DNA of 39,762 nucleotides from Bacteroidaceae bacterium. Its GTDB lineage: Bacteria; Bacillota_I; Bacilli_A; RF39; UBA660. The stretch covers positions 1-39,762 of the forward strand of contig CAVFIB010000003.1 in assembly GCA_963622385.1 (NCBI GenBank), given 5' to 3'. Each line of letters begins with the position of its first letter. Position 1 is the first letter of the stretch. This document shows, one piece after another, positions 15,545 through 39,456 of the stretch. A model generated the notes under the pieces. That model saw only the letters and a list, made by a program, of their open reading frames with translations, was not told where the DNA came from and ran no database searches. A program made the position numbers and the translations under genes.

Positions 15545-15599
15545 TTATATTCTCCTTTTTCTATCTATATTTTTAATTGTTTGATAGGTACTAATATTT

Positions 15600-16890: not shown

Positions 16891-16922
16891 AAAAAACAAA
16901 AAAGCATTAATTTTGCTTTTTT
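16891..16922 (-). terminator. Rho-independent terminator of module 2 (stop codon in the loop)
   Basis: The minus strand reads AAAAAAGCA-AAATTAA-TGCTTTTTT followed by GTTTTTTG. The hairpin spans the TAA at 16907-16909. Confidence 0.6.
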
Positions 16923-20462: not shown

Positions 20463-20463
20463 T

Positions 20464-24233: not shown

Positions 24234-25253
24234 TTAAATTTTCCATTTCATAATTGTTTTGTAATCATTGTTAGCACTTGCTTCAAATGCTTTTGTTATG
24301 TCTTTTACATCGTTTACTATTATTTCTTCGGAAATTATATTTGTTAAATAATCTACTGCATCTTTATTATTTTCTAAAAAGTCTATAGAGGCTTTGAAAT
24401 CTTCATAAGAACTTCTGCTGTTTCCTATTAAGGTAAGGCCTTTTTCTAAGACCATGCGTGTATTTATTGGTACATTGTTTTCATTTACTCCGAGTAGTGC
24501 TATTGTTCCTTGGGGGTTAATTATATCTATTATTTGATTTATTGCATTTTCTGATTTAGGACCACCAACACATTCGAAAGCGTGATCTACTCTTAAGTCT
24601 TCTGGTACTTCATTAACTAAATAAGTTTCATCTACGAAGGGTAAATAGTTTAGTTTGGTCTCGTCTGCATCAAATGCTACTATTTTAGCATCTTTGTAAG
24701 CATATTTTAAGATGAGTGCTGTACAAAGACCAACGTTACCGCATCCCCATACACCAAGGGTTAATTTGTTTTTATGACTATAATTTTTAAAATGATCAAG
24801 TGCATTCATTGAAACGCTTAAAAGTTCTAGGAGTACTGCGACTCTATCGGGTATTTTTTTATATTCTATGACTCTGTTTCTTGAAATGCAGACAAAGGAT
24901 TGCATAAAACCATCAATACCACTAGATTTGAATTTACTGCTTCTTAAATAGTTTTCTTTTATTACATCACTTTTTTCTACTGGGGTATTAGGAATCATAA
25001 CTACTTTTGTTCCTTTTTTGTAAAGACCTTTTGGATCGTATATAACCTCTCCTACTGCTTCGTGTATTAAAGCCATTGGAAGTTTTTTTCTTAGTATTTC
25101 TGGTTTTCTAAGTCCAAAAAAATATCTTTTATCTGCAGCACAAATGGATAAGTAAGTTGGTCTAACGATTATATCATCATCGTGTAAGTTTTCTTCAACT
25201 ATGTCTATTCTTATTTGTTTGGGAGAAGATAATCTATAAGAATGATTAAGCAT
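24234..25253 (-). CDS. tarJ: Ribulose-5-phosphate reductase (ribitol-5-phosphate dehydrogenase)
   Basis: It is collinear with S. aureus TarJ as I recall it: IVRPTYLSICAADKRYF, KLPMALIHEAVGEV, KGTKVVMIPNTP, FECVGG and VLEKGLTLIGNSRS. Confidence 0.88.
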   Translation of the reverse strand: MLNHSYRLSSPKQIRIDIVEENLHDDDIIVRPTYLSICAADKRYFFGLRKPEILRKKLPMALIHEAVGEVIYDPKGLYKKGTKVVMIPNTPVEKSDVIKENYLRSSKFKSSGIDGFMQSFVCISRNRVIEYKKIPDRVAVLLELLSVSMNALDHFKNYSHKNKLTLGVWGCGNVGLCTALILKYAYKDAKIVAFDADETKLNYLPFVDETYLVNEVPEDLRVDHAFECVGGPKSENAINQIIDIINPQGTIALLGVNENNVPINTRMVLEKGLTLIGNSRSSYEDFKASIDFLENNKDAVDYLTNIISEEIIVNDVKDITKAFEASANNDYKTIMKWKI

Positions 25254-25959
25254 CGTTTCTCACCGTAACTATTGCACTAGCTAGTTTCAAATCGAAAACA
25301 GTTGTAATCTTTATATTGAAAGTTTCTCCCATAACTATTTTAACTGGTTTATTCTTTAAAACAAATATTTTACAAGCATCAGTAAGAATATCTTTTTCGT
25401 CTTCTGTTAAAGATGTATATAATTCCATTAATTCAAGGATATTAAATGTTTGCGGAGTTTGTCCATAATATAAAACACTTCTATTAGGAATTGATTCTAT
25501 TTCTTTATCGTCTAAGCTTTTAATGATTGTATCAGTAGCAGGTATTACAGTATCTACTGCAGAACATTTTTTTCCGGCTTTTATATTATCTTCAATTATT
25601 CTTTGGTTTATAAAAGGACGAACTGCATCATGGGTTATTATTATATCATTTTTATTTATACCATAAGTTTTTTCTATGTATTTGCAACCGTTTATTATTG
25701 ATTCGTTTCTAGTGGAACCACCACAAGTTACTTCAATGTTATCGTTGTTTTTAATATATTTTTTGATTAAATCTTCAGTATAAGAAATCCAGTTTTTAGG
25801 AGTACAAACTATTATCTTATCGATATCTTTGTTTATAACAAATTGTTCTATTGTATGTATTATAATTGGCTTTTCGGAAAGCATCATAAATTGTTTAGGA
25901 AGATCTTTGTTTCCAAATCTTTTTCCATGTCCTCCTGCTAATATTTCTGCATAAATCAT
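25246..25959 (-). CDS. tarI: Ribitol-5-phosphate cytidylyltransferase (CDP-ribitol synthase)
   Basis: It is collinear with S. aureus TarI: ILAGGHGKRFG, LPKQF, THDAVRPF, YGQTPQTF, DACKIF and NIKITT. It overlaps tarJ by 8 nt. Confidence 0.9.
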   Translation of the reverse strand: MIYAEILAGGHGKRFGNKDLPKQFMMLSEKPIIIHTIEQFVINKDIDKIIVCTPKNWISYTEDLIKKYIKNNDNIEVTCGGSTRNESIINGCKYIEKTYGINKNDIIITHDAVRPFINQRIIEDNIKAGKKCSAVDTVIPATDTIIKSLDDKEIESIPNRSVLYYGQTPQTFNILELMELYTSLTEDEKDILTDACKIFVLKNKPVKIVMGETFNIKITTVFDLKLASAIVTVRNDA

Positions 25960-25977: not shown

Positions 25978-26742
25978 TTAATCTAAACTTTTCATAAATT
26001 CTTCGTATTTATCTACTATTTCGTCAGGTTTTCCGTCACCTTTTAAAACACCATCATTTATCCAAATTACTCTGTCACATAGACTTCTAAGTGTTCTTGA
26101 ACTGTGTGATACTATGATTACGGTTCTGTCTTCATCAGAAATAAGTTCTTTCATTTTGTTATAGCTTTTTTCTTGGAATCTAACATCTCCGACTGATAGA
26201 ACTTCATCTATTAGCATTATATCCGTTTCAAGAATAGCAGTTATTGCAAAAGCAAGTTTTGAATACATTCCAGAGGAATAGGAGTTAACAGGTTTATAAA
26301 TAAAATCTCCTAGTTCAGAAAATTCTATTATTTCGTCTATTCTTTCTTTTATTTGGGCTTCTGAGTATCCTAAAAGGAGGCCTGATAAGAATATATTTTC
26401 ATATCCTGATAATCTTCTTTGAAAACCAACACCAATTGAAAGAAGTGATATGGAATTACCATGTAAATCTATAGAACCAGAATCTGCTGAAAAGATACCT
26501 GCTATAGCCCTTAGTAGTGTTGATTTCCCTGAACCGTTCTTACCACAGATACCAAGTATTTGTCCTTTTGGAATTTCAAATGATACATTTTTAACTGCAT
26601 GGAATTCTTTAGCATTAAGTAGGTTTTTAATGCCAGATCTTGCTAAAGAAAATCTTTTTATGTCTTTATAAAAGATATTTAAATTTTTAACAGTAATAGC
26701 AATTTCTTGCTTTTGTTTAGTTTTAACTTGTTCTTTTTCCAT
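25978..26742 (-). CDS. tagH: Teichoic-acid/polysaccharide export ABC transporter, ATP-binding subunit (short form)
   Basis: Walker A is GKNGSGKST, the signature is YSSGMYSKLAF, and Walker B is IMLIDEVLSVGD. Its start overlaps the tagG stop (TAATG). Confidence 0.88.
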   Translation of the reverse strand: MEKEQVKTKQKQEIAITVKNLNIFYKDIKRFSLARSGIKNLLNAKEFHAVKNVSFEIPKGQILGICGKNGSGKSTLLRAIAGIFSADSGSIDLHGNSISLLSIGVGFQRRLSGYENIFLSGLLLGYSEAQIKERIDEIIEFSELGDFIYKPVNSYSSGMYSKLAFAITAILETDIMLIDEVLSVGDVRFQEKSYNKMKELISDEDRTVIIVSHSSRTLRSLCDRVIWINDGVLKGDGKPDEIVDKYEEFMKSLD

Positions 26743-27527
26743 TACTTCATCACCTTTACATATGTATTTTCATATTTATATATGGTTCTTATACCGATCA
26801 ATGAAAGAACGATTCCTATTACAAACCAAAATGCAAGTAGTTTTAAACTAGGGGTTTTCTGGTACATTAGACATTTTCTAAATGATGAAATCATTGCTGC
26901 GATAGGGTTAAATTTTTCAAGTAAACCACTATATGGCTTAGGTACTCTGTTTAAAGAGAAGAATACACCAGATATATAGAATAGCATTCTAAATAGTATT
27001 GGTACTAAGTTTTTCAAATCTTCTACAAATACTCCGAAATGCATAAAAATAGATGCAAGTCCAAAAGTAACTAGATATAAAATTATATATATTGGTATAA
27101 AGAATAAAACATTCCAAGAAATAGGTACTTGATAGATAAACATACATATAACAACTAAACTAAAGGATATTAAAAACTTGATAGTTTTTACAGACATGTT
27201 TGTTATCAAGAGAATGAATTTTGGTACATATACTTTTATAACGGTATCTCTATTGTTTCTAACGAGTGAGACTGCTGAGGTAATTGTTCCTTGAAAGAAG
27301 TTCCATGCTGTAAGACCAATAAAGACAAATACTGTATAATATTCTTGTTGAGATTTAAATACTATGATAGATATAAATGTATAAATAAGCATAAAACAAA
27401 TTGGATTAAGGAAAAGCCAAATCCAACTTAAATATGAACCAGTAACTTCAGTCTTTAACTGAGATTTAGTAGAATATTTAATATATTTCCAGTACTTTTT
27501 TAAGTCGCCGAAAAATCTTTTAATCAT
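26742..27527 (-). CDS. tagG: Teichoic-acid/polysaccharide export ABC transporter, permease subunit (ABC-2 type)
   Basis: It has six predicted TM helices and the ABC-2 pattern (SYLSWIWLFLNPI...). I set the start at the ATG at 27527 (MIKRFFGDLKKYW), which overlaps the upstream stop. The longer ORF (to 27587) would overlap the neighbouring gene by 68 nt. Confidence 0.85.
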   Translation of the reverse strand: MIKRFFGDLKKYWKYIKYSTKSQLKTEVTGSYLSWIWLFLNPICFMLIYTFISIIVFKSQQEYYTVFVFIGLTAWNFFQGTITSAVSLVRNNRDTVIKVYVPKFILLITNMSVKTIKFLISFSLVVICMFIYQVPISWNVLFFIPIYIILYLVTFGLASIFMHFGVFVEDLKNLVPILFRMLFYISGVFFSLNRVPKPYSGLLEKFNPIAAMISSFRKCLMYQKTPSLKLLAFWFVIGIVLSLIGIRTIYKYENTYVKVMK

Positions 27528-28131
27528 TGTTAACACCATCCTTTTGTAATTTACTATTTTCATATTCTTTTGGAGTATTAAAGTCAATTGTATCTTTGTC
27601 GACTATTATATATTTATCCGCTATTTTCTTTACATCAAATTCTAAATTCATAAATGATTGATAAACTTGCCAACCTTTACAATTTTTAATTTTTCCTTCT
27701 AAGTATAGTTTTCTAACACGATCAACGTGTTTTTTGAATAGCTTTCCATCTTTTATTTTTATTGCTACTATCGATTTTTCATTTCCAAAGAATAGAATAT
27801 CATCTGGTTCAGTATTTAAAATAACCTTTATAGATTCTTCTGGGTAATATGTATCACCATATAGGAAACAAATATTATCTTCTATTAATTCTTCAGTAAA
27901 TCTATCTATTTCTAAGACATTATTTTTAGGTTCATATCTAGTAGAACCTTCTATATCGTATTTTTCATCGTGAGAAGTAATAATAACATCTGGCTTTTCT
28001 AATTCTTCATTAAGTTGTCTAACAGTTCGTTTTATTAATGGTTCTCCATTTATTGTAGCGAAATGTTTTGGCAATCCTTTATAATTATTCCATCGAGTTG
28101 CTTTCCCATCACACATTATTATATATTTCAT
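27520..28131 (-). CDS. Atypical nucleotidyltransferase-fold protein (putative sugar-/polyol-phosphate nucleotidylyltransferase)
   Basis: The N-terminus MKYIIMCDGKATRWNNYKGLPKHFATINGEPLIKRTV follows the layout of the G-x-G-x-R ... PK ... G.PL signature of GT-A-type nucleotidyltransferases, but the Gly-rich loop is replaced by CDGKATRW. A later LYGDTYY could be the acidic metal site. Confidence 0.45.
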   Translation of the reverse strand: MKYIIMCDGKATRWNNYKGLPKHFATINGEPLIKRTVRQLNEELEKPDVIITSHDEKYDIEGSTRYEPKNNVLEIDRFTEELIEDNICFLYGDTYYPEESIKVILNTEPDDILFFGNEKSIVAIKIKDGKLFKKHVDRVRKLYLEGKIKNCKGWQVYQSFMNLEFDVKKIADKYIIVDKDTIDFNTPKEYENSKLQKDGVNND

Positions 28132-28139
28132 GTAATCAC

Positions 28140-29255
28140 CTAATTATCAATATTTTTCATTATATAATCCCCAATTAATTTAGTAGATTGTCCTAATTTG
28201 CTTGGTAAGTATTTTTTTCTAAAATCTTCATATGCTTTAACATCATAAGTATCTTCGTTAATGATTCTGAATAAATCTTTTATGTTTTTTGACGTACAAG
28301 TTGGTAAAACCTTAGTAGCATCTAAGTTTATACCGTTTTCTGACATATACTTGTCATAATCATAGACATAAAAAAGGACTTTTTTGTCAAGAACAGCAGC
28401 TTCTAAACAAATTGATGAATAGTCTGTTATAACATAATCAGCAACAGCTAATAGTTCTATATTTTTAAATCCTGGGCAATCATATATAACATTATGATCA
28501 AATTCAAGAGGTTGATTAGGATGCCCTCTTACAATTAATACAAAATCATCTTTATTGTATTCTTTAAACATTTTAGCTGGTCCATCTATATCATACTTCC
28601 TAAAAGTTGGGGCATAATATACTATTTTTTTGTTTTTGAATTCAGGATACTTTTCAAATACTTCTTTTTTGAATTTATTTTCATTTTCTAATAGATAATC
28701 TATTCTTGGAAGTCCATAATGTAATAAAACATCTTTTTTAACATTAAATCCAGCCTCATAAAAATCATCAAATGCTGGTCCTCCAGCAAGTATCTTTGTA
28801 TAGTTTTTATGCATGCACATAAGTTCGGCCATTTTTTTGCTTCTTCCAGAGGCGGTATCAAGTGTTTGATATCCTGACTTTTTAATTTTACCAATAGAAT
28901 GCCATATTTGCAAGACAACAAGGCTTTTTTTATGGTTTAAAACACAGACTGGAATGCAGTAAGAATCAATTATTGCTATTTTTGATGTTGCTAAATGATA
29001 CATTTGTCTGATGATTGTAAAGAAATATGCTATTTTTTTAAATATATTTCCTTCAATTCTTTTACACAAAAATACCATTTTTATACTGCTGTCTCTTTTT
29101 CTTATTTCATCTCTTATCATACTAAAGTCTGTATTTATATCATTGGTTTGTCTGCTTATAAATACTATTTTCTTATTATTGGTAGGTAATAGTTTTAAGA
29201 AGAAATAAATAAATTTTAAGATTCCTTTAAAAATATAAATAGCTATTGTTTTCAT
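28140..29255 (-). CDS. TagB/TagF-family (Glyphos_transf) polyol-phosphate transferase
   Basis: An N-terminal amphipathic segment is followed by motifs shared with the C-terminal half of the 893-aa fusion: VFISRQ, QIWHSIG, ILAGGPAF, GLPRIDYL, YAPTFR and ITDYSSI. Confidence 0.8.
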   Translation of the reverse strand: MKTIAIYIFKGILKFIYFFLKLLPTNNKKIVFISRQTNDINTDFSMIRDEIRKRDSSIKMVFLCKRIEGNIFKKIAYFFTIIRQMYHLATSKIAIIDSYCIPVCVLNHKKSLVVLQIWHSIGKIKKSGYQTLDTASGRSKKMAELMCMHKNYTKILAGGPAFDDFYEAGFNVKKDVLLHYGLPRIDYLLENENKFKKEVFEKYPEFKNKKIVYYAPTFRKYDIDGPAKMFKEYNKDDFVLIVRGHPNQPLEFDHNVIYDCPGFKNIELLAVADYVITDYSSICLEAAVLDKKVLFYVYDYDKYMSENGINLDATKVLPTCTSKNIKDLFRIINEDTYDVKAYEDFRKKYLPSKLGQSTKLIGDYIMKNIDN

Positions 29256-29612
29256 ATTAATTATACCATTGGTAAACGTAATGGTTACCCAACCTTTCTA
29301 TCAGTTCTTCTTTTTTTATATTATTACATACTATAGACCTAATAAGAACTCAGATAATTCTTTTGCCTTGAAGTTAAAATAAATATCAGTTATTCTTCTT
29401 GCTATAGTTAAATGTTACAAGGTACTAGCCATAAATTAGACACCTCTCTAGTAATTATTATATCATACTATTGACGTAAAACAAAATTTTTACTTTATTA
29501 TACCTTGTTTTTTGTAGTAATTACCTAGTTTTTTGTTACGTTGTCCTCCAAAAACTTGTATTATATTAACTCCTGATGAGTTGTTGGCTTCAATTACAGA
29601 GAAACTACTATA

Positions 29613-31103
29613 TCAGTTCTTTTTGAAATGCATTTGTACTTCGCGTAAATATTTTATTACAAAGCGTAGTAATAGAAAGTGTTCGATAAGTAATGAGCTG
29701 TTATCCTCAACAGAATATATTTTATTTTTTAATATACCACATCTTTTTTTCATTTTATTGTGCTTATCAACATTTATATTTGGTTTAAATATAATATCCG
29801 ATCCATTATACTTTGTGTAAAACATGAGTCTTGTTTTTTTTCTATCTAAAGTAATAAAACCAGAAAAACTTTTAATAATATTCATGTCATCATTTAAAAA
29901 TGATTTTCTATTCTTATCTGTTTCTAAAAGATTTATTTTATAAGTTTTTCCAACTTCATCAATATATAAATGATTAAACTCAAAATATGATGACATTTTT
30001 ATTAATCCATTTATCCAGAGTTTTCCTTTTTTTAAGGACATATTAGTTATAGTAAAACTATTTTTATTTATTATTTTATCAATTTTTTTATTTTTGAAGT
30101 AAGCAAAACCATCTTTGAATTCAAGAGCATCTTCAGGCAATTCATCGTATTTTAGCTTCAGTAAATACAATTTGGTATCTAAAACAACTTTATTTGTATT
30201 AATTATAACATCATCGTCAATTTGTTTTATTATGTTAATTATTTTACTTTGATAATCTTTTTTTATATCTGGAGATATGTTTTCAGGAATTTCTTCCCCT
30301 ACCCTATATTTTATGGCATTAATAAGAATGTATTGTATATATGGCAATATTGACTTATATTTGTTTTTTGAAAGTTCTACTAAATATTCATAATAATACT
30401 TTACGGTGTCTGTATATGCTTCAACTCTATATTTTTTATTTTGAGTTGCAGATGTCATATCAAATCTTTTTCTTATATTATAGGTACAATCACTCATTAA
30501 AGCATATTTTTCTTTTTTTAATATAATTTCGGTTACATATTTTGCATCTTCGGCATACTTTAACTTTTCATCAAATTTATAATTCTTTGCAACTTCTGTT
30601 CTTATAAAAACCGAAGCAACACTTAATTGGATAAAACTTGGATAGTCATTAATATTTATTATTTTATTTCCGTTCTTGTATTTATAATCTAAAGAATGAA
30701 CACTTTTTTTGCCTTCGAAATATTTTTGCCTACAGCTAATTAGATCAATGTTTTTATTGATGTCAAAAAAGTGGTTAATTTTTTCAAAAACATCGTTGTT
30801 CCAAATATCGTCAGCATCAAAAAAATTGATATACTCACCAGTGGCGAGTTTGAGTCCTTCATTCCTAGCTTTTGAAACACCACTATTTTTTTGCTTTTTA
30901 TAAATTACATTGTCGGGATATCTGCTTACATATTTTTTGCATATTTCATCTGAATTATCTGTACTTCCATCATTAATAAGGATTAATTCAATATTTTTTT
31001 CAAAGCCTATTGTTTGATTGATAACAGAGCTAATTGATTCGTCCAGAAAATGTCCAACATTATATATAGGCATAACAACTGAAAATTTAATTTTCTTACT
31101 CAT
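29613..31103 (-). CDS. TarS-like GT2 glycosyltransferase (GT-A + helical linker + beta-rich C-terminal domain)
   Basis: It is paralogous to aa 1 to about 480 of the 893-aa fusion: FSVVMPIYNVGHFL, LINDGSTDNS, NSGVSKARN, FDADD and AEDAKY. It has no phosphotransferase domain. AAGAGGTG is an upstream RBS. Confidence 0.85.
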   Translation of the reverse strand: MSKKIKFSVVMPIYNVGHFLDESISSVINQTIGFEKNIELILINDGSTDNSDEICKKYVSRYPDNVIYKKQKNSGVSKARNEGLKLATGEYINFFDADDIWNNDVFEKINHFFDINKNIDLISCRQKYFEGKKSVHSLDYKYKNGNKIININDYPSFIQLSVASVFIRTEVAKNYKFDEKLKYAEDAKYVTEIILKKEKYALMSDCTYNIRKRFDMTSATQNKKYRVEAYTDTVKYYYEYLVELSKNKYKSILPYIQYILINAIKYRVGEEIPENISPDIKKDYQSKIINIIKQIDDDVIINTNKVVLDTKLYLLKLKYDELPEDALEFKDGFAYFKNKKIDKIINKNSFTITNMSLKKGKLWINGLIKMSSYFEFNHLYIDEVGKTYKINLLETDKNRKSFLNDDMNIIKSFSGFITLDRKKTRLMFYTKYNGSDIIFKPNINVDKHNKMKKRCGILKNKIYSVEDNSSLLIEHFLLLRFVIKYLREVQMHFKKN

Positions 31104-31114
31104 ATAGCACCTCT

Positions 31115-32239
31115 TTACTCATTAACTGGTAGTTCCCATTTTTTTATGTTCTTGTTTTTCTTTTTTAGTCTTTTATAATTGATAAGTTTTTCCAGTTGTT
31201 TTTTCTTTCCAATTTCATCAGGTATTTGTTGCCCTAAAAACTGTGTTTTCCCGTTTCCTTCGACTATTACTACTTCACCTTTGTCATTGATTGCAACATC
31301 CCAACCTATGTATCTTGTTTTATCAAATGCTAATGCTGCTTTTTTAGCTACATTTATTACCTCTTTCCATTTTGGTATCTGAAAACCTTTAAATCTAATA
31401 TTGGTATCTGGATGAAACTCATAAACTATATTGGTTTCATCTTTGCCATCAGTAATTATAATACCTGTTTCTGGATCTATCATAGCAAGTATTCCTCCAT
31501 CTCCGCCATTATCTACAAATGAAGAACCTTGTCCAACCTTTATAAATGGTAAATGAATGAAGACATTATCTTTCTCATCTCTATATGTTACTATTCTTAA
31601 AGTGTTAAGAGATTCTGGATGTAAAGAAGCTGTTTCTTTGCACTGGATAATTCTTTCTTCTAGTATTACTTCACCGTCTCTTAAAATATAATTAAACATG
31701 TTTTTCATGTTATCATAATTAGATAAATCTATCAGTTCTATTCCGGATCCAAAAGATGATGAAATAGGTTTTTTAACGAATTGATTATGTTTATGTACAA
31801 AATTTTCAAATTCTTTATAATCTTTTTCTCCTATTTTTATCATATCTCTTTTGTAAAATTTCTTTAAAAGCTCATAAGTTTTATATTTATCATTCAAAGT
31901 TTGTTGTCCTTCTTTTTTTCCTAACAAATACAAATAATTTTGTCTATCCCTATTAATTATAAATTTTTTTCTTTGAAAATGATTCTTGTTTTTAAATCCA
32001 AACAAGAAATATTCCTTAAATGATAAATTATAATGTACTCTACAATAACTCATATCATTTTTAAAGTAGTTTTTTTCTGTATTTGATAAATTATGTTTAT
32101 TTGTATATGTATCTATTGTTTCATTTATAACCTTTTTTCTTATTTCATTTGAGCAATAATACATTTTTCTTAAAATAAACGGTCTAAAGAAAATTGATTT
32201 TCTAGCAAGTCCCATTATAATTTTCTTTTTTGTTACCAT
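31115..32239 (-). CDS. ATP-grasp ligase, sugar-transfer-associated type (paralogue 1)
   Basis: The ordered motifs are VKKPISSSFGSGI, ILEERIIQ, LNTLRIVT, VDNGGDGGILAMIDPETG, HPDT, IPKW and IGWDVAINDKGEVVIVEGNG. GGGAGTG is an upstream RBS. Confidence 0.75.
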   Translation of the reverse strand: MVTKKKIIMGLARKSIFFRPFILRKMYYCSNEIRKKVINETIDTYTNKHNLSNTEKNYFKNDMSYCRVHYNLSFKEYFLFGFKNKNHFQRKKFIINRDRQNYLYLLGKKEGQQTLNDKYKTYELLKKFYKRDMIKIGEKDYKEFENFVHKHNQFVKKPISSSFGSGIELIDLSNYDNMKNMFNYILRDGEVILEERIIQCKETASLHPESLNTLRIVTYRDEKDNVFIHLPFIKVGQGSSFVDNGGDGGILAMIDPETGIIITDGKDETNIVYEFHPDTNIRFKGFQIPKWKEVINVAKKAALAFDKTRYIGWDVAINDKGEVVIVEGNGKTQFLGQQIPDEIGKKKQLEKLINYKRLKKKNKNIKKWELPVNE

Positions 32240-32256
32240 ATAATCACTCCCATCGA

Positions 32257-33315
32257 TTATTTTATTAAATGATGATATCTGTAAAAGTCTCCTAAAGGTT
32301 TATTTTTTTGTCCCCCCCATAACTGAAGAATGTTTATACCTGAAGAGGCATTTGCTTCTATGATGCACATACCTTTTTCTGTTAAAAGTACATCCCATGC
32401 AACAAAGTTTAAATACGGAAATTTATTAGCTAAGTCAACTATTTCACGTTTTATCTTATTCCAATTCGGAATTTTAACTCCTTCTATAGGACGTTTACTA
32501 TCAGGGTGTATTTTGTAAGTATTTGTGTTGTGTAGACATTTAGCAGCGCTTAATTCACCTGTTTCTAAATCCACCTTTGCAACAAGACCTCCTTGACTAC
32601 CGTTATCAACAGGTATTGTATTAAAAGTTCCTATTCTTTGAACAGCAAAATAAAGGATAAATTTTTCAGTTTTCGGATCTTTAAAGGTTACTAGTCTAAG
32701 AGTATTAGAAGTTTTGTCATAAAGATTATTCAAATATTCGTTTTGTTTTACTGTTTCGCAAACAAAATAGTTTTTTTCTTTTTCAAAATACTTTAGAACA
32801 TCATTTCTAGTTGTTTCTTTTTCATTTATAAAGTACTTTTTATCTATATATTCAAAAGTAGCTACGCCATTACCTTTTCCACTATCTATAGGTTTTAAAT
32901 ATAAACTATTATTTTTTTCTAAGAATTGTACTAGTTCCTCAGCAGTATTTATATTTTCGCCAAAATTAGCAATGGATTTATTTTGTTTCAGACAATATAT
33001 CGCTGGAACATATACATATTGTTTTAACAGCTCAGTAGTTACTATTTTGTTGTTTAAAATGAATTTGTAATTGCCATTAATGTATCTTGATTTATACCAA
33101 TCAAATTCTGACAAGTATTCTTTTTTTCTTTTGTGATTAAGTTTATACAGTACTACTTGGTCTCCTATATATCCACCATTAATGTTCCAATAAAGTCTCT
33201 TGAAAAAAGGGACTTTCATATGGGATTTGGCAAATAAAATTCTAACTATCCACAGAAGGGCTAATCTCGCTTTTCTTCCTAAATAATCATTAGTTCTTCT
33301 TAAAAATTTCATCAT
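32257..33315 (-). CDS. ATP-grasp ligase, sugar-transfer-associated type (paralogue 2)
   Basis: The motifs are YLKPIDSGKGNGV, FVCETVKQ, NTLRLVT, VDNGSQGGLVAKVDLETG, HPDS, IPNW and VAWDVLLTEKGMCIIEANAS. The ORF-track start at 33324 is a GTG. I prefer the ATG at 33315 (or 33312), 5-8 nt after AAGGTGA. Confidence 0.75.
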   Translation of the reverse strand: MMKFLRRTNDYLGRKARLALLWIVRILFAKSHMKVPFFKRLYWNINGGYIGDQVVLYKLNHKRKKEYLSEFDWYKSRYINGNYKFILNNKIVTTELLKQYVYVPAIYCLKQNKSIANFGENINTAEELVQFLEKNNSLYLKPIDSGKGNGVATFEYIDKKYFINEKETTRNDVLKYFEKEKNYFVCETVKQNEYLNNLYDKTSNTLRLVTFKDPKTEKFILYFAVQRIGTFNTIPVDNGSQGGLVAKVDLETGELSAAKCLHNTNTYKIHPDSKRPIEGVKIPNWNKIKREIVDLANKFPYLNFVAWDVLLTEKGMCIIEANASSGINILQLWGGQKNKPLGDFYRYHHLIK

Positions 33316-33320
33316 AATTA

Positions 33321-35711
33321 TCACCTTTTCTCTCTTCGATCAATAAATTTAAATAATTTATGTGGCATATGTTTATCATATCCATATATTTTCTTTTTTT
33401 GTTCTATTTTATATAATAAATACTTCATGGAACGTGGCTTCAATTTATCTATTTTCATATAATCAGGATACCTATTTATTTCTGGGAATTTGATTCCATT
33501 ATCTGTAATAGATACGTCAAAACCAAAATATTCAATCTGTTCAAAAAAACTGGAAATTTCTTTTATGTCATTTAAGATTTTTTCCCAATTGGGTATAGAT
33601 CCTTCGATAGGAACATGCGTATCTGGATGTTCTTTGCATGGTGCTATTTTTAAATCATCTGTTATTATTAATGCATCATGGAAAACACCTGTTTCTTCAT
33701 CAATAGTAACATTGATTCCACCAGCACCAATATTATCGACAGTACCAGTTTTACTTGAACCGAATCTCATATAAACATTTCCAACTTCAGGAGTTTTGCC
33801 ATCTGCTTTAAAAACTATTACTCTCATAGTGTTAACGGATCCAGCATATATTTTATTTATAAAATCACTCTGTTTAATATACTCAGTCACCAAATACTCA
33901 TTATTCTTATCTGATAATATATTGATGATATCTTGTTCAGTAGCTTCATTTAAGTTTAAGTATAACTTATTGTTTTTATAGCTTACTCTATAAAAACCTT
34001 CTCCATGAGAACCATTATCTCTTTTTAAGGCTATATCTCCTTCTTTTTTTATTAAATTAAATATATCTCTATAAGTGTTTTTATATCCTCTTGGACAATC
34101 CATCATTGGAATTATTTTATTTTCACCTTGTCTTAGCCCAATATAATAATAATATTTCGGAAACAAATGATTATACTCGCTGGCAATGTGTTTAATTGTT
34201 ATCTTATCTTCGAACCATACTTTATAATAGTTATTTATATGTCTTAACCATCTATACTCAAAATCAGATATGAATTCTTTATAGTTATCTTTAGTTATGC
34301 CATACTGGTCTAATCTATATGATAAGAAGCCATGCCTATATGCCCAAAGTTTTGTTTTTACTGGTACATCTTTATTTTCAAAAAAATCATCTTTTACATT
34401 TTTTAGCCATCTAAAACTTAGATATGGCACTAATCCTTTAGGGTAAAAAATATCTGCAAATAATTTTGCGAACTTTAATCTTACTTTCTTTGTAAATATC
34501 TTAAACTTAAAACCAAAGTCTGAATATAGTTTTCTTTTAGTGTGGTATTTATAGGTTAAAAATTCGCTGTAGTCTTCGTTGAAATAAGAAGCATTACAAT
34601 ATTCTGGATCATTACAAATATTAACGATTTTGATGCCATTACTTGAAATCATTAGTTTTACTTCAGCCATTTCTATTTGAGGGATTTTTTTGAAAATATC
34701 GTGAATTATAGATTTTATATTTTTAAAATTCTTTTCTACTAAATTTATCAGTTCTTCGTTTTTGTAAACTTTGCTGAGTTTTACTACTTCTTTGCCTCTT
34801 TTGACTAAACAAAATTTAAATCTACCAGTTTTTTCATCAAAGTAAATTCGTGCTTTACTGTCTTCTTGTTCTTTTTCTTTATTTTTTTTATGTTCTTCAA
34901 CACTATAATTTTCTGATTCATCTTTTTTCGAAATATTACTTTGCTTGGTTATATTATCGACTATATAATCGTCATTATTAACTTTTGCAAATAGTTCTCC
35001 AATTAAAGGATCAAGTCCATCCTTATTATATATGCTTAGATAAATAACTGCAGGTTTATCATATACTTTGAACGATTCGTTTGGTTCAACACTTTCAGCA
35101 AGGATCAAACTATTGACTTTTTTAGCAGTTTTTTTAATAAATGAATCTAATTTGTCTTGCTCTATTTCTTTGCCATCAAGAAAAAACTTTTTATCGGTAT
35201 ATTTGATAGAAAACTTTTTTTTATAATCTGAGTACATTAATACCAATGACTTTTGTTTTTTTATGAAATCATAAAAAGAAATTTCATCATTTTTTAATTT
35301 TTTATCGATAGCAATTATTTTTAAATTTCCATCTCTTAAGTACAATTGATAATAAATGGAAAGTAAGTTTTTATTTAACTCATTAAGTACTTTGTATGTT
35401 GTTACGGCATCAGATAACCAAACATTGTATTTTCCATTAGCTCCATATAAATACAAATATTTTTTATATGAAAGATATTTATTGACGTTTTTATTATTAA
35501 TCTTTAATGTTTTCATTTGATTAGGCAAATATCCATATTTATATGCTTTTATTTTATTGAAAAATGATGTTTTGTGATCGTGAAAAAAATTGTCAATTGC
35601 TTTTTCTTTCCATTCCATCGCTGCATTAAGTGTATAGCCATTATAAACCATTCTTGATGAGATGAATGCTAGAATACTTTTTTTCAACTTCGTTTTTTGC
35701 ACATTTGACAC
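33321..35711 (-). CDS. Two-module ATP-grasp protein: degenerate N-terminal module + intact C-terminal sugar-transfer-associated ATP-grasp ligase (paralogue 3)
   Basis: The C-terminal module (aa about 395-796) has ALKRDNGSHGEGF, LVTEYIKQ, NTMRVIV, VDNIGAGGINVTIDEETG, HPDT, IPNW and FGFDVSITDNGIKFPEINRYPDY. The N-terminal module aligns with it by eye but lacks the Lys/Gly loop, the GG loop and the E-x-N motif. The start is a GTG at 35711 or 35702, and the second has AGGGG 8 nt upstream. The gene begins 2-11 nt after the xseB stop. Confidence 0.75.
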   Translation of the reverse strand: MSNVQKTKLKKSILAFISSRMVYNGYTLNAAMEWKEKAIDNFFHDHKTSFFNKIKAYKYGYLPNQMKTLKINNKNVNKYLSYKKYLYLYGANGKYNVWLSDAVTTYKVLNELNKNLLSIYYQLYLRDGNLKIIAIDKKLKNDEISFYDFIKKQKSLVLMYSDYKKKFSIKYTDKKFFLDGKEIEQDKLDSFIKKTAKKVNSLILAESVEPNESFKVYDKPAVIYLSIYNKDGLDPLIGELFAKVNNDDYIVDNITKQSNISKKDESENYSVEEHKKNKEKEQEDSKARIYFDEKTGRFKFCLVKRGKEVVKLSKVYKNEELINLVEKNFKNIKSIIHDIFKKIPQIEMAEVKLMISSNGIKIVNICNDPEYCNASYFNEDYSEFLTYKYHTKRKLYSDFGFKFKIFTKKVRLKFAKLFADIFYPKGLVPYLSFRWLKNVKDDFFENKDVPVKTKLWAYRHGFLSYRLDQYGITKDNYKEFISDFEYRWLRHINNYYKVWFEDKITIKHIASEYNHLFPKYYYYIGLRQGENKIIPMMDCPRGYKNTYRDIFNLIKKEGDIALKRDNGSHGEGFYRVSYKNNKLYLNLNEATEQDIINILSDKNNEYLVTEYIKQSDFINKIYAGSVNTMRVIVFKADGKTPEVGNVYMRFGSSKTGTVDNIGAGGINVTIDEETGVFHDALIITDDLKIAPCKEHPDTHVPIEGSIPNWEKILNDIKEISSFFEQIEYFGFDVSITDNGIKFPEINRYPDYMKIDKLKPRSMKYLLYKIEQKKKIYGYDKHMPHKLFKFIDRREKR

Positions 35712-35713
35712 CC

Positions 35714-35941
35714 CTATTCTACTACCTTAAACTCTTCTTCTTCACCATTTTTATTTAATGCCTTAACAATTGTTTCACTTGCATTTTCAAGTATCTTATT
35801 GCAGTTATTTGCTAGGGTCATTCCTTCGTTAAACTTATCTATTGCATCGTCAAGAGCAATATCTCCGCTTTCTAATTTTTTTACTATTTCTTCTAGTTTA
35901 TTTAGATTTTCTTCAAAAGAATTGTTTTCGTTATTTTTCAT
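35714..35941 (-). CDS. xseB: Exodeoxyribonuclease VII small subunit
   Basis: It is 75 aa with the motif FEENLNKLEEIVKKLESGDIALDDAIDKFNEG. It overlaps the xseA stop. Confidence 0.9.
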   Translation of the reverse strand: MKNNENNSFEENLNKLEEIVKKLESGDIALDDAIDKFNEGMTLANNCNKILENASETIVKALNKNGEEEEFKVVE

Positions 35942-37623: not shown

Positions 37624-39456
37624 TTAATAAGACAAATAATCTTTTAGTGTTTCAACAGTAGAAGAGCCATTAATTTTAATTCTAGAAATTAAATATTGAT
37701 AATTTGTTCTTTGAGCAGCTTTGTATGGATTAAACCCAAATCCTAATAGGTATTTATTTTCCTTAGTAACTTCTTGTAAGTCTTTAGTATAAACTCCGTA
37801 TGGATATGCAATATATTTGAAATTATATTTTTCGTTTTGTTTAAAGTCTTCTCGTATTTCGTCTTTTGTCATGTTTTTAACGTGTTTTTGTCTATTGATA
37901 TCAACATAATGAAAATTATAACTGTGGCTTTGCAGTTCATGTAAAGGATACTCGATTTTTATTTTTTCCATTAGATCTTCGGAGATGTATCTTATTTCGG
38001 TTTCATCGTATATGCCTTCTTCTTTTTCTTTTGTTCTTGAACCCACTACAAAGGTTACAGCTTTAAAATTGTACTTTTTAAGAAGAGGCATAACTAAGTA
38101 ATAATCATCTAAATTACCATCATCGAATGCAAGAACAACAGTTTTTTTAGGAAAGTTGCAATTACCTTTATACCAACAATAAAACTCATCTAAACTTATT
38201 GTTTTATAATTATTATCATATAAATACTTTATTTGTTGCTCAAATATATCATATGACTGAACCCATTGATCTTTTTTGTATTTAGCATTTTTAAGCTTAT
38301 CTGAAACTATTCTATGAAAAGTAAATATAGGTATTTGAATAGCTTTTTCATGTTCAAGACTTGTGTTGGTACTACAAATATATGCAATTTCTTCATTTAT
38401 GCTTACCTTATAATAACCATCATTACAATTTTTACCATCATATTTTTTTGTTGTTTCTAAAATAATTGGTTCATTTTTTTTATATTTATATGTTGCCTTT
38501 TTTCCTTTTAAATTTTTGTAAATTGTGGTTTTTTTGATTGCTTTAGTGACAGTTGGAGCATTAGAGAGTAATCTACTACAAACATAACCTTCTTTATGTC
38601 CATATTTAATCTTATAGAAACCTTGAGGGCAACCTGCTCCTTTATATTTTTTGTGTGATGCTACTGCTATTTTTTTATTGTACTTTATTCTCATTATTTT
38701 TTTAGAAGATGAACTAGCTTTTGCTCTTACATTAATTCCATCTTTATTATTAGAAACACTTATATATTTTGTTTTTAAAACATCAACTTTTTTTATAAAC
38801 CTTACTTTATTTTTATAATAAACTTTATAATAATTACCATAACTCTTGCTATCATATAAAGTAAGTGGAGTGTTATAGGATAGTTTCCTTAAAACATGTT
38901 TTCCCTTGGTGTTTGAATATACTTTTACTTTATCTAAAGTAGTTATTACACTAGAGCTTTTATTTGAATAGTTAACATACTTACTACAAATATATTTTAT
39001 ATTTCCATCGTAATTAACTTTATATAATCCACTTTTACAATACTTAGTATAATACTTTTTACTACCTACTACAGTAAATAATATATTTTTTATATTTCTT
39101 TTATATATTGTTTTATTAGAAGTACTGTTATATAAAAAAGCTTTCTTGTTGTTTGTTCTAATGGTATGATTAGATATAACTATTTTACTGCTACAGACAT
39201 AACTTGTTTTATTGTTATGGGTTATTAAATACCAACCCGCTTTGCACCCTTCAGTAGATGCAACCTTAGTTAAACTATTTATTACAACCATATCATTGTA
39301 GGATAGACTGTCATATTTTTTATAATTAGTACCTGGACCACTTCTTACATTTAACTTAGTAGTACTAGTTACCCTACCTATTTCAAGTGCATTACAACTT
39401 TGTATCCCCACAAAAGATATAAATATGAAAAATATAATAAACCAAAATTTCTTCAT
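37624..39456 (-). CDS. Secreted protein with five SH3b-like repeats and a C-terminal polysaccharide deacetylase (NodB-type) domain
   Basis: The signal peptide is MKKFWFIIFFIFISFVGIQSCNA. A module of about 70 aa repeats, with the pattern G.YK[VI]......Y[VI]CS. The C-terminal part shows FTFHRIV, VLAFDDGNLDD, KAVTFVVG and LQSHSYNFH. GGAGGAG is an upstream RBS. Confidence 0.8.
   Translation of the reverse strand: MKKFWFIIFFIFISFVGIQSCNALEIGRVTSTTKLNVRSGPGTNYKKYDSLSYNDMVVINSLTKVASTEGCKAGWYLITHNNKTSYVCSSKIVISNHTIRTNNKKAFLYNSTSNKTIYKRNIKNILFTVVGSKKYYTKYCKSGLYKVNYDGNIKYICSKYVNYSNKSSSVITTLDKVKVYSNTKGKHVLRKLSYNTPLTLYDSKSYGNYYKVYYKNKVRFIKKVDVLKTKYISVSNNKDGINVRAKASSSSKKIMRIKYNKKIAVASHKKYKGAGCPQGFYKIKYGHKEGYVCSRLLSNAPTVTKAIKKTTIYKNLKGKKATYKYKKNEPIILETTKKYDGKNCNDGYYKVSINEEIAYICSTNTSLEHEKAIQIPIFTFHRIVSDKLKNAKYKKDQWVQSYDIFEQQIKYLYDNNYKTISLDEFYCWYKGNCNFPKKTVVLAFDDGNLDDYYLVMPLLKKYNFKAVTFVVGSRTKEKEEGIYDETEIRYISEDLMEKIKIEYPLHELQSHSYNFHYVDINRQKHVKNMTKDEIREDFKQNEKYNFKYIAYPYGVYTKDLQEVTKENKYLLGFGFNPYKAAQRTNYQYLISRIKINGSSTVETLKDYLSY

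Follow-up and report, generated by a model that had tools for sequence, protein, structure and literature searches.

Three tandem putative ligase genes of one family

The window considered here, the whole stretch of DNA that was analysed, is 39,762 nucleotides long and comes from an uncultured gut Firmicute. Three consecutive genes on its minus strand, designated G1, G2 and G3, match the Pfam family ATPgrasp_ST (PF14397). G1 (31115-32239) encodes 374 amino acids and scores 171.5 bits (E 2.9e-50). G2 (32257-33324), with 355 amino acids from the first GTG or 352 from the first ATG, scores 145.8 bits (E 1.9e-42), and G3 (33321-35711), a two-module protein of 796 amino acids, scores 121.7 bits (E 4.5e-35). 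All of these values are far higher than the gathering score of the family (31.4 bits), and at such scores matches by chance are excluded. The three proteins are mutually paralogous, with 24-29% identity. Residues invariant among them (G1 numbering) are K157, G164, G166, E195, Q199, N212, T213, R215, D243, N244, G248, G249, H276-P-D278, D314, E327 and N329, and so include the Lys, the Gly-loop, the hinge Glu and the D/E-x-N residues. The predicted ATP and Mg motifs are intact in three modules, namely G1, G2 and the C-terminal half of G3. An earlier note on this DNA had described three tightly packed paralogous ORFs of the ATPgrasp_ST clade, and these are present with the lengths it gave (352 amino acids for G2, from the ATG), as is every motif string that it quoted. 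Its spacing of 11-17 nt fits the gaps between G1 and the adjacent glycosyltransferase gene (11 nt) and between G2 and G1 (17 nt), but G3 runs 4 nt into G2.

An AF2 model of G1 (pLDDT 92.4) returned 472 Foldseek matches in the PDB at E<=1e-3. The 50 matches listed are all ATP-grasp enzymes, as the earlier note had expected of the fold, and include Ddl/VanA, RimK, PsnB, PurK, CPS and TTL types. In this model the domain at the N-terminus is all-helical, in place of the usual alpha/beta pre-ATP-grasp domain. When the PF14397 profile was compared with the PDB, no solved structure of the family was found; the best match was the polyglutamylase TTLL7 (7e-4), with RimK weaker. The sole NCBIfam match of the ligases is to the alpha-L-glutamate-ligase-like model TIGR02291, with a score of 45 against a far higher cutoff of 314. 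By these comparisons the nearest sequence relatives are ligases that add amino acids to proteins or peptides. Matches to PF14398 (YheC/D-like) are marginal (27.6-28.7 bits, cutoff 26.8) and lie beneath the much stronger PF14397 matches, and none of the three proteins matches PF14305 (TupA-like ATP-grasp) at E<=0.01. Close homologues all come from MAGs. No paper naming ATPgrasp_ST was found in a literature search, and literature and structure searches together found no biochemically characterised member, in keeping with the earlier note.

G3 joins two modules of different quality. The PF14397 match is confined to residues 487-755, within the C-terminal module (amino acids 436-796; 33321-34406, minus strand), where K563, the G567-S-H-G570 loop, E610, R630, D659-N660, G664-G665, H695-P-D697, D732, E744 and N746 are conserved in 34 of 34 homologues. 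The N-terminal half (amino acids 1 to about 400; 34512-35711, minus strand) is nevertheless related: it matches G2 by BLASTP (E 2e-5), and hhalign aligns it with single-module ATPgrasp_ST proteins (probability 99.5%, E 2e-22, 307 columns) and with the C-terminal half of G3 itself (E 6e-64). This half lacks the Lys/Gly loop as well as the NTxR, VDNGG, HPD and E-x-N motifs, the only residues invariant across the 34 homologues are G, A, W, P, S, Y, N and Q, and amino acids 247-283 form an acidic disordered loop. Judged by these residues it is a degenerate, putatively dead copy of the ATPgrasp_ST module. The locus is thus predicted to encode four such modules, three catalytically intact, as the earlier note had counted, and one degenerate, which it had not. 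The AF2 model of G3 (pLDDT 85.9, pTM 0.86) has Foldseek matches to Ddl, to RimK and, over ~900 alignment columns, to CPS, which has two ATP-grasp modules; the kinases PPIP5K2 and Asp1 are also among the matches. The full-length architecture is kept in nearly all of the best 120 of 216 matches, at 36-65% identity and 93-100% query coverage.

Genes surrounding the ligases

The neighbouring genes, on the minus strand wherever coordinates are given, were identified by Pfam, NCBIfam and PDB searches. Directly upstream of the ligases is xseB (35714-35941), recognised from its ORF and translation and from the syntenic genes in two related loci (L079 and L081), which are Exonuc_VII_S. Its stop codon is only 2 nt from the G3 start; contrary to what had been proposed, the ligases are not at the head of a free-standing locus or operon. 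Downstream of G1 lies a GT2 glycosyltransferase of 496 amino acids (29613-31103; PF00535, E 3e-33) that is related to TarP (6h1j, 8e-20) and TarS (5tze, 5e-16). Beyond it, a 357-nt gap (29256-29612) contains a short segment (29337-29432) that is 87.5% identical by tblastn to the first 32 amino acids of a 305-amino-acid gene in L001, a 95%-identical locus, where that gene is intact at the same position beside a 315-amino-acid paralogue. By this alignment the segment is a remnant of a deleted gene.

Next come a TarB-like CDP-alcohol phosphotransferase of the Glyphos_transf family (28140-29255, 371 amino acids; PF04464, E 1e-52), whose best NCBIfam match is TarB (1.3e-33, short of the TarB cutoff), and a small nucleotidyltransferase of 203 amino acids, designated NTP_203 (27520-28131). 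The latter has weak NTP_transf_3 and IspD matches; its best PDB profile matches are the IspD/TarI-like 3f1c, LicC, CobY and IPCT, and it has more than 1000 homologues, the best 120 at 63-95% identity. The remaining genes are a TagG-like ABC-2 permease (26742-27587; PF01061), which probably starts further downstream than the TTG overlapping NTP_203, a TagH-like ABC ATPase (25978-26742; PF00005, E 4e-22), the CDP-ribitol synthesis genes tarI (25246-25959; PF01128, E 1e-40) and tarJ (24234-25253; ADH_N and ADH_zinc_N), and an 893-amino-acid fusion of GT2 and Glyphos_transf domains (21534-24215; PF00535 and PF04464). On the other side of the locus from xseB is spoIVB, with spoIIM nearby. NTP_203 was absent from the earlier note, which had correctly named the TarS-like GT2, the TagB/F-type transferases, TarI/TarJ and TagG/TagH. 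No terminator-like site was found on the minus strand between 21000 and 38000, consistent with its view that none precedes 21506, and the window holds no uronic-acid or free-amine-sugar genes, again as it had reported. Also without a representative in the window are racemase genes, amino-acid supply genes, PGA_cap or CapB-type genes, and dlt genes or families of the Dlt type (adenylating enzyme, carrier protein, MBOAT).

Related loci and gene fusions

We used G1-like peptide patterns as seeds for a survey of 78 ATPgrasp_ST loci, which are phylogenetically non-independent; the counts stand without a genome-wide background control. Tandem arrays of 2-6 ATPgrasp_ST genes occur in 38 loci, and other ligase or epimerase-type genes (ATP-grasp_4, MurF-like, PGA_cap, Asn synthase) in 41. 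The glycan linkage proposed in the earlier note holds for at least 56 of the 78 loci, which carry glycopolymer genes; an ATPgrasp_ST gene is immediately beside a GT2 gene in at least 11, and some members are found in Wzx/Wzy/Bac_transf polysaccharide loci. In roughly one locus in four, however, glycan genes are not seen, and the family is therefore not exclusively glycan-linked.

The partners of the ligases are in part those that had been foreseen. Across phyla, the orthogroups of G2 and G3 are found alongside the TarB-like gene, NTP_203, TagGH and an LCP ligase, and NTP_203 proved central to this cassette. The comparison ties the ligases to the TarB-like gene, NTP_203 and TagGH, and neither to ribitol synthesis (TarIJ) nor to GT2; these three, with the LCP ligase of relatives, make up the conserved core of the pathway. 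A TarB-like gene is present in 9 of 12 loci with a G2 orthologue and in 1 of 66 without (Fisher 1e-8, for loci that are not phylogenetically independent). The minimal form, in L087 and L088, is a self-contained set of seven genes (Glyphos_transf, G2-like, NTP_203, G3-like, TagG, TagH, LCP) surrounded by unrelated housekeeping genes; it has neither TarIJ nor glycosyltransferases, and its sole polymer-building enzyme is the TarB-like phosphotransferase. TarIJ is missing from L081 and from L083-L088, and TarI and TarJ are a variable add-on to the cassette, not part of its core. The ligases are themselves accessory and not obligatory, since the cassettes of L079 and L080 have GT2, TarB, NTP_203, TagGH, TarIJ and GT2/TagF but lack ATPgrasp_ST genes, and MurF-like genes upstream of nusB are the sole ligase genes in these loci. 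In the orthologous loci L002 and L003 a MurF-like ligase sits between G2 and G1, and in other related loci CapA-like PGA_cap genes lie among the ligases. The interval from xseB to spoIVB is a syntenic backbone that receives variable cassette insertions.

Several of these associations are also seen as gene fusions. Four separate sequence clusters (L066, P0363, P0371 and P0387) carry NTP_203 joined to a G3-like ligase, and the other partners of NTP_203 are a TupA-like ATP-grasp domain, a Mur ligase plus LRR, and an Asp/Glu racemase. ATPgrasp_ST domains are joined to a TupA-like domain in L066, to PGA_cap in L031 and L044, and to MurF-LRR in L083. The NTP_203 family is not specific to ligase pathways: in its more distant relatives the fusion partners include ordinary glycosyltransferases as well as methyltransferases and sulfotransferases. 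The fusions with ligases favour a nucleotide-activated precursor as the target at least as much as the finished polymer.

Proposed function of the ligases

We think it somewhat more probable than not that the three proteins carry out stepwise cytoplasmic ligation of amino acids onto an activated unit or a lipid-linked teichoic-type polymer before export by TagGH. G1, G2 and G3 would act as ATP-dependent carboxylate-activating ligases of the RimK/TTL/Ddl type, converting a carboxylate to an acyl-phosphate and coupling it to an amine or hydroxyl, with one ligase per step; the dead module of G3 may be a degenerate scaffold. NTP_203 would make an NDP- or CDP-activated unit, and the TarB-like phosphotransferase would move that unit as its phosphate. 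The acceptor may be the nucleotide-activated unit, by a logic like that of the Park nucleotide, or the nascent lipid-linked polymer. Our best guess for the amino acids is acidic ones, such as Glu or Asp. The polymer would then be exported by TagGH with amino-acid or short-peptide substituents already attached and, in relatives, could be tied to peptidoglycan by the LCP ligase. G1 forms a pair with the TarP/TarS-like GT2, and its role is probably in a branch specific to the strain.

A specific version of the earlier note's proposal has the ligases act as a cytoplasmic substitute for Dlt, esterifying the hydroxyls of a finished or growing poly(ribitol-phosphate) chain with D-Ala or other amino acids. 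This is unlikely, although TarI, TarJ and the GT2/TagF-type enzyme share the operon, ester formation is within the reach of ATP-grasp enzymes (the top Foldseek matches include VanA-type D-Ala:D-lactate ligases) and the window is without dlt genes, since a Dlt system may exist elsewhere in the genome, related cassettes have the ligases with neither TarIJ nor any polymerase beyond the TarB-like enzyme, and L079 has TarIJ with no ATPgrasp_ST gene. The nucleotidyltransferase fusions point, moreover, to a soluble precursor, and a simple alanyl ester would lack the free carboxylate that MurF-like partners extend. Those same MurF-like ligases, the YkuD (L,D-transpeptidase) genes that adjoin L027 and L051, and the addition of D-Asp to peptidoglycan precursors by ATP-grasp enzymes of other families would suit ligases that modify the side chain or cross-bridge of peptidoglycan precursors, with the wall-polymer linkage reflecting only envelope co-regulation. 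We consider this quite improbable, given that the G2 and G3 orthogroups track TarB-like, NTP_203, TagGH and LCP genes across phyla in a compact cassette, that the direct fusions are with the cassette nucleotidyltransferase, and that other members of the family occur in Wzx/Wzy/Bac_transf loci.

It is very unlikely that the proteins are not amino-acid ligases at all, but kinases or enzymes joining an organic acid or other non-amino-acid carboxylate to the polymer: in sequence they lie closest to the TTLL and RimK-type glutamate ligases, and the neighbours and fusion partners of their relatives are MurF-like ligases, an Asp/Glu racemase and CapA/MslH-like proteins. These points outweigh the presence of kinases in the ATP-grasp superfamily, with PPIP5K2 and Asp1 among the G3 matches, and the lack of an amino-acid supply gene in the window. 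Least credible to us is a spore-surface glycan locus with YheC/YheD-like spore-coat enzymes in place of a vegetative wall polymer. The marginal PF14398 matches and the position between xseB and spoIVB, near spoIIM, would fit it, but PF14397 matches far better over the same stretches, the adjacency is backbone synteny with cassettes inserted, and TagGH with LCP indicates a peptidoglycan-anchored polymer.

The preferred reading, stepwise amino-acid ligation in the cytoplasm, has parallels in several known systems. The Dlt system, which acts outside the membrane by means of an adenylating enzyme, a carrier protein and an MBOAT, would likewise place amino acids on a teichoic-type polymer, whereas the ligases described here are predicted to be cytoplasmic and to form acyl-phosphates. 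RimK and TTL/TTLL, the nearest by profile and fold (RimK with a TM-score up to 0.57 on the target), add free amino acids to carboxylates of macromolecules, and the TTLL family has separate paralogues for initiation and elongation; identity to our ligases is only about 12-16%, however, the N-terminal domain is all-helical here, and the gene context points to a wall polymer, rather than a protein, as the target. On the MurC-F route to UDP-MurNAc-peptide (Park nucleotide), each cytoplasmic ATP-dependent ligase attaches a single residue to a precursor linked to a nucleotide, and a phosphotransferase afterwards shifts that precursor to a lipid carrier. Gene fusions suggest that a nucleotide-linked peptide intermediate may exist here too, and MurF-like ligases occur in related loci, but here ATP-grasp ligases take the place of Mur-type ones, a TagF/TarB-type transferase that of an MraY-type one, and export is by TagGH. 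Archaeal pseudomurein gene clusters, in which Mur-type ligases occur with an ATP-grasp protein and a MobA-like NTP transferase (PMC11915815), have an enzyme mix comparable to that of the related loci. Teichuronopeptide of Bacillus halodurans is a wall polymer of an acidic glycopolymer plus polyglutamate (PMC8153356). As in poly-gamma-glutamate systems (PgsB/CapB, CapA), CapA-like PGA_cap proteins are found among or fused to the ligases of related loci; the present window differs in its lack of a PGA_cap or CapB-type gene and in a backbone that would be teichoic-type (phosphodiester) and not polyglucuronate. Cj1438C of Campylobacter jejuni, cited in the earlier note as a precedent, forms amides between capsule glucuronate and serinol-phosphate or ethanolamine-phosphate (PMC11800379). 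It resembles our ligases, as do TupA and WemR, in being an ATP-grasp enzyme of a surface-polysaccharide locus, but it belongs to another Pfam family (PF14305) and is a single ligase, whereas here there are tandem ligases and no uronic-acid pathway.

The link to surface polysaccharides predicted for ATPgrasp_ST, a family known solely as a computational prediction, fits the context of these genes. Tandem arrays, a dead module fused to an intact one, and linkage to a cassette of TarB-like, nucleotidyltransferase, TagGH and LCP genes all exceed what the family name conveys, and the attachment of amino acids to a wall polymer by ATPgrasp_ST ligases would be a chemistry that nobody has demonstrated so far.

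The three ligase genes and the operon that contains them

The three minus-strand ORFs described in the earlier note are present in this window of 26% GC as G1 (31115-32239, 374 aa), G2 (32257-33324, 355 aa when read from a GTG start, 352 aa if the first ATG is used) and G3 (33321-35711, 796 aa). G1 lies 11 nt from the adjacent GT2 gene, G2 lies 17 nt from G1, and G3 and G2 share a 4-nt overlap. A Pfam search bore out the suggested membership of all three in PF14397 (ATPgrasp_ST), whose gathering threshold is 31.4 bits: G1, G2 and G3 score 171.5, 145.8 and 121.7 bits (E-values 3e-50, 2e-42 and 5e-35). They are also paralogues, as had been supposed, with pairwise identities of 24-29%. The ATP-binding Lys, Gly-rich loop, hinge Glu, NTxR, VDNGGxGG, HPD and D...E-x-N motifs are invariant among the paralogues, and the same columns are invariant in 38 family members. 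The Lys/Gly-rich loop, the hinge Glu and the Mg-binding D...E-x-N are intact in G1, in G2 and in the C-terminal half of G3, which keeps every catalytic residue across 34 homologues. Partial matches to PF14398 (YheC/YheD-like; 27.6-28.7 bits, cutoff 26.8) lie beneath the far stronger PF14397 matches. The sole NCBIfam match of the ligases, TIGR02291 (RimK-related alpha-L-glutamate ligase), covers only their C-terminal part at 37.7-45 bits and does not reach its cutoff of 314 bits.

The AlphaFold2 model of G1 (pLDDT 92.4, pTM 0.89) gave 472 Foldseek matches in the PDB at E<=1e-3. Every one of the 50 listed is an ATP-grasp protein (Ddl/VanA, RimK, PsnB, PurK, CPS and TTL), with TM-scores of at most 0.45 (query) and 0.57 (target); at identities of 10-16%, none of them is a close solved relative of G1. 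The model of G3 (pLDDT 85.9, pTM 0.86) gave 95 matches at E<=1e-3, and Ddl, RimK, PurK, CPS and TTL dominate the 50 listed. The ATP-grasp fold suggested for the ligases is thus confirmed, with its three domains, at the level of predicted structures. In the G1 model residues 1 to ~130 are all-helical, where the usual ATP-grasp N-domain is alpha/beta. A solved PF14397 structure was found neither by a PDB sequence search with G1 alone, which returned spurious matches, nor by a PDB profile search, in which the nearest sequence relatives of the family were TTLL7 (7e-4) and, more weakly, RimK. ATP-grasp enzymes convert a carboxylate to an acyl-phosphate, which is then ligated to an amine, hydroxyl or thiol; those of the TTLL7 and RimK class add free glutamate or tyrosine to a carboxylate of a macromolecule.

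The ligase genes had been placed at the head of an operon, a position that they do not occupy: xseB (35714-35941) ends 2 nt before the start of G3, and nusB and xseA lie further upstream. The absence of a terminator before 21506 did hold, with nothing terminator-like on the minus strand between 21000 and 38000. A promoter scan was uninformative in DNA of such low GC content (99 promoter-like sites found, 112 expected), and the window has no Rfam matches. Downstream of G1, on the same strand, lie a TarP/TarS-like GT2 gene (PDB 6h1j, 8e-20; 5tze, 5e-16), a 357-nt gap, a TarB-like Glyphos_transf gene (28140-29255) and a gene for a 203-aa nucleotidyltransferase, NTP_203 (27520-28131). These are followed by TagG and TagH, TarI and TarJ, a GT2+Glyphos_transf fusion, sugar genes of the 6-deoxy-L-HexNAc type, two proteins with three GT2 domains each, and spoIVB. 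The Tag/Tar pathway parts found (PF01061, PF00005, PF04464 twice, an IspD-type TarI and an ADH-type TarJ) identify, from sequence matches, an ABC-transporter-dependent wall teichoic acid pathway with exporter, Glyphos_transf transferases and CDP-alditol synthesis. Our ORF scan took in every minus-strand ORF of 100 aa or more, together with the plus-strand ORFs except four short ones nested within these. Pfam and NCBIfam matches to these ORFs included no TagO, TagA or LCP ligase in the window, and these may be encoded elsewhere in the genome. The Pfam families of Dlt (DltA AMP-binding, DltC carrier, DltB MBOAT and DltD) occur in no window ORF. The scan also found no aminotransferase or racemase genes in the window and, in agreement with the earlier reading, no uronic-acid genes.

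Several other features of the window deserve mention. The gap between the GT2 and TarB-like genes (29256-29612) is a deletion scar, in which a relic at 29337-29432 (minus) retains the first 32 codons of a 305-aa gene at 87.5% identity; that gene is intact in four related loci (L001 and L083-L085), where a 313-315-aa paralogue follows it, and neither product has a Pfam or NCBIfam match. When its first TTG is taken as the start, the TagG ORF (26742-27587, minus) shares 68 nt with NTP_203; since homologues are 261-268 aa long, its true start is probably further downstream. The two giant proteins with three tandem GT2 domains are encoded at 11584-14358 and 16907-19642 (minus; 924 and 911 aa). The sugar genes (14438-16625 and 19644-21456, minus) comprise two Polysacc_synt_2 paralogues (341 and 330 aa), an RmlD-like reductase (272 aa) and a UDP-GlcNAc 2-epimerase (14438-15544). 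Together they point to the production of a 2-acetamido-2,6-dideoxy-L-hexose, presumably of the L-RhaNAc, L-QuiNAc or L-FucNAc type, and/or of UDP-ManNAc. Just upstream of nusB, at 37624-39456 (minus), a 610-aa secreted protein with SH3_3 repeats and a polysaccharide deacetylase domain is encoded, as it is at the matching place in L001 and L002.

A degenerate module in G3

The PF14397 match in G3 is limited to residues 487-755. Its N-terminal half aligns with G2 (BLASTP E 2e-5), and profile-profile comparison identifies this half as a duplicate of a full-length ATPgrasp_ST module: hhalign matched it to single-module proteins with a probability of 99.5% (E 2e-22, 307 columns) and to the C-terminal half of G3 itself with E 6e-64. 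The duplicate lacks the Lys/Gly loop, NTxR, VDNGG, HPD and E-x-N and contains a disordered acidic insert (aa 247-283); G, A, W, P, S, Y, N and Q are the only residues that stay invariant in it among 34 homologues. With this half a degenerate duplicate, the trio amounts to four modules of which three are competent; the three active ligase modules proposed earlier are represented by three intact active sites, and to these must be added a fourth, dead module fused in G3. The two-module architecture is seen over approximately the full length, at 36-65% identity, in nearly all of the best 120 of 216 matches, and the sampled G3-like clusters all come from MAGs. The G3 model gave long Foldseek alignments to carbamoyl-phosphate synthetase (CPS), which itself consists of two ATP-grasp modules. 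Many ATP-grasp enzymes act as dimers, and we infer that the dead module may be a built-in dimer partner or a substrate scaffold.

Related loci, conserved core and gene fusions

A genome scan, run with 19 closer sequences and seeded with G1-like motifs, found 78 loci, mostly in gut and rumen Bacillota MAGs with a few in Eggerthellaceae and Bacteroidota. Among them, L001 represents this very locus, with proteins 95% identical, in an uncultured Bacilli MAG obtained from a Hadza sample. Two to six tandem ATPgrasp_ST genes occur in 38 of the 78. Neighbours within 6 kb were clustered and the cluster representatives were scanned with Pfam; the resulting counts are of loci that are not independent and have no genome-wide background behind them. 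A second type of ATP-grasp gene (ATP-grasp_4/Ddl-like) lies near the ligases in 21 loci, GT2 in 17, Bac_transf in 16, Wzx in 15, TagH and DegT aminotransferase in 12 each, PGA_cap (CapA-like) in 11, TagG in 10, Wzy and OCD/mu-crystallin in 9 each, and Mur-ligase+LRR_5 in 8; TarB-like, NTP_203, TagD-like, LicD, Asn synthase and LCP genes were each found in fewer loci. Glycopolymer genes are present in at least 56 of the 78 loci and a further ligase or epimerase-type gene in 41. The expected association with glycan loci is thus seen in most neighbourhoods and fails in some: L046, L040, L024 and L037 have aminotransferase, hydrolase or unrelated neighbours, and the PF14397 family is not exclusively glycan-linked. 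The pairing of G1 with the TarP/TarS-like GT2 is paralleled by ATPgrasp_ST/GT2 pairs in at least 11 loci.

A more specific association was found for G2. The TarB-like gene is present in 9 of 12 loci with G2 orthologues versus 1 of 66 without (Fisher 1e-8); NTP_203 and TagG show the same co-occurrence, and the pattern for G3 is like that for G2. The set is reduced to a compact cassette among unrelated housekeeping genes in abundant MAGs of Anaerovoracaceae type (L087 and L088), in the order Glyphos_transf, G2-like, NTP_203, G3-like (747-757 aa), TagG, TagH and LCP-like protein, with no glycosyltransferase and no TarIJ. The seventh protein (449-482 aa) has a membrane anchor and an LLLGVDSRD motif, and matches the LCP genes of other loci. 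Two further loci, L079 and L080, contain GT2, TarB, NTP_203, TagGH, TarIJ and GT2/TagF genes, with two MurF-like+LRR genes upstream of nusB, and lack ATPgrasp_ST. They rule out that TarB-like and NTP_203 genes always need ATPgrasp_ST partners. Since these loci keep the TarB-like and NTP_203 cassette without them, the ligases are, judged by gene content, a variable accessory set on a TarB-like/NTP_203/TagGH/LCP core and not on the ribitol/GT2 part. The loci L081, L083-L085 and L086 combine three or four ATPgrasp_ST genes with PGA_cap, MurF-like+LRR, TarB, NTP_203, TagGH and an acyltransferase or transglutaminase-like protein, and lack TarIJ and any glycosyltransferase. In the orthologous loci L002 and L003 a 667-aa MurF-like ligase with a BspA-type LRR end lies between G2 and G1 (TIGR01143 at 5e-64, below cutoff; MurF structure 4qdi at 9e-24).

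In related Bacilli MAGs (L001-L003 and L079-L086) the region from xseB to spoIVB (10464-11444) forms a hypervariable island of wall-polymer genes; its flanks are constant, and combinations of ligase, PGA_cap, MurF-like+LRR, TarIJ, glycosyltransferase, acyltransferase and transglutaminase-like genes vary within it. MurF-like ligases with C-terminal BspA-type LRRs are found at L002:7968-9971, L079:1-2902 and L083:281-3502, the last additionally fused to ATPgrasp_ST; the LRR fusion is odd for a ligase that is presumably cytoplasmic. YkuD L,D-transpeptidase or transglutaminase-core proteins lie beside cassettes at L027:3433-4695 (also in L051), L086:13556-15226 and L088:17707-20349, and could perhaps cross-link the wall with a polymer that bears peptides.

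NTP_203 has more than 1000 homologues, the best 120 at 63-95% identity. It matches only NTP_transf_3 and IspD in Pfam, and a PDB profile search shows weak likeness to IspD/TarI-like enzymes, LicC, CobY and inositol-phosphate cytidylyltransferases (IPCT). The possibility that it is a CofC-like 2-phospholactate/phosphoglycerate nucleotidyltransferase supplying a carboxylate handle was dropped, as neither CofC nor FbiD appeared in that search. A full-library search gave 943 relatives, many of them C-terminally extended. An Eggerthellaceae protein of 1069 aa (L066) joins a complete NTP_203 (44% identity, E 2e-57) to a G3-like ligase, and its 1202-aa neighbour joins ATPgrasp_ST to a TupA-like ATP-grasp domain. 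By Pfam, P0363, P0371 and P0387 are further NTP_203/G3-like fusions; the 968-aa G3 homologue P0231, considered as another, carries no such fusion. NTP_203 is also fused to TupA-like ATP-grasp (P0452), to Mur ligase and LRR_5 (P0392) and to Asp/Glu racemase (P0362), and L031 and L044 contain fusions of PGA_cap with ATPgrasp_ST. In more distant relatives of NTP_203 the fusion partners are GT1, GT2, GT10, methyltransferases and sulfotransferases; the family as a whole makes nucleotide-activated donors.

Possible function and relation to known systems

The ligases are linked, and in relatives fused, to a pathway of nucleotidyltransferase, TagF-type transferase, TagGH and LCP proteins, in which they would add amino acids one by one in the cytoplasm ahead of export by TagGH. 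The earlier note had proposed direct decoration of poly(ribitol-phosphate). The window itself encodes CDP-alditol synthesis and the GT2 adjacent to G1, and G1, paired with this GT2, probably serves a strain-specific branch. The comparative data fit direct decoration less well than assembly at the precursor level: the minimal cassettes lack TarIJ and glycosyltransferases, and the recurrent ligase/nucleotidyltransferase fusions indicate that a peptide would be built on a precursor. These fusions and the MurF-like partners favour a nucleotide-linked acceptor, in a logic like that of the Park nucleotide. MurF extends the C-terminus of a nucleotide-linked peptide, and pseudomurein peptide assembly begins on UDP-activated glutamate. 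In pseudomurein clusters, too, Mur-type ligases occur together with an ATP-grasp protein and with a MobA-like NTP transferase (PMC11915815). The CapA-like neighbours weakly match the model of MslH (2e-14, far below cutoff), a C-terminal peptide epimerase (PMC10406935). Together with the Asp/Glu racemase fusion, these neighbours make acidic and D-residues the best guess for the substrates, which is only a lead.

A broader proposal, which we hold tentatively and regard as doubtful, is that peptidoglycan is not the only peptide-bearing polymer in the walls of some Eggerthellaceae and of Bacillota from gut and rumen, and that these bacteria make a second one by a Park-nucleotide-like 'teichoic peptide' route. 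The small nucleotidyltransferase would activate a handle to NDP-X. On this the ATPgrasp_ST ligases would assemble, still in the cytoplasm, a short peptide that is partly D-configured and probably acidic, with MurF-like ligases and a C-terminal epimerase of CapA/MslH-like type also contributing in relatives. A TagF/TarB-family transferase would then transfer or polymerise the peptidyl-X-phosphate, TagGH would export the product, and an LCP enzyme would anchor it to the wall. The dead module of G3 would serve this route as dimer partner or scaffold.

Our literature searches found no paper naming PF14397 or ATPgrasp_ST, and those on ATP-grasp with teichoic acid, amidoligase or O-antigen returned TupA-like or unrelated work only. 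The precedent cited earlier, Cj1438C, is a valid example of a glycan-directed ATP-grasp enzyme, but it is TupA-like, PF14305 (PMC11800379), a family with no Pfam match at E<=0.01 in G1, G2 or G3; WemR and CfmP are likewise TupA-like (PMC13419641). PF14305 does occur in the fused relatives L066 and P0452. Teichuronopeptide, a co-polymer of the wall made up of polyglutamate and polyglucuronate (PMC8153356), is a conceptual relative of the proposed polymer, whereas Dlt is mechanistically unrelated to the ligases. A probable role of ATPgrasp_ST proteins in modifying surface glycans is already implied by the family name; what is new is the arrays of several ligases, the conserved fusion to a pseudo-ligase, a defined cassette of seven genes and the recurrent nucleotidyltransferase fusions.

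Amino-acid substituents set the charge of the Gram-positive wall, and in this way affect how it resists cationic peptides, adsorbs phages and is recognised by the immune system. To our knowledge Dlt, which acts outside the membrane, is the only well-understood route of amino-acid substitution. For heterologous reconstitution, the compact cassette of seven genes is a tractable unit. A cytoplasmic ATP-grasp route, if true, would be a new branch of envelope biochemistry in abundant uncultured gut and rumen Firmicutes, and the more so if short peptides are built on a nucleotide-activated unit. It would also provide a first function for the large Pfam family PF14397, and functions for a highly conserved family of 200-aa nucleotidyltransferases and for the MurF+LRR proteins.
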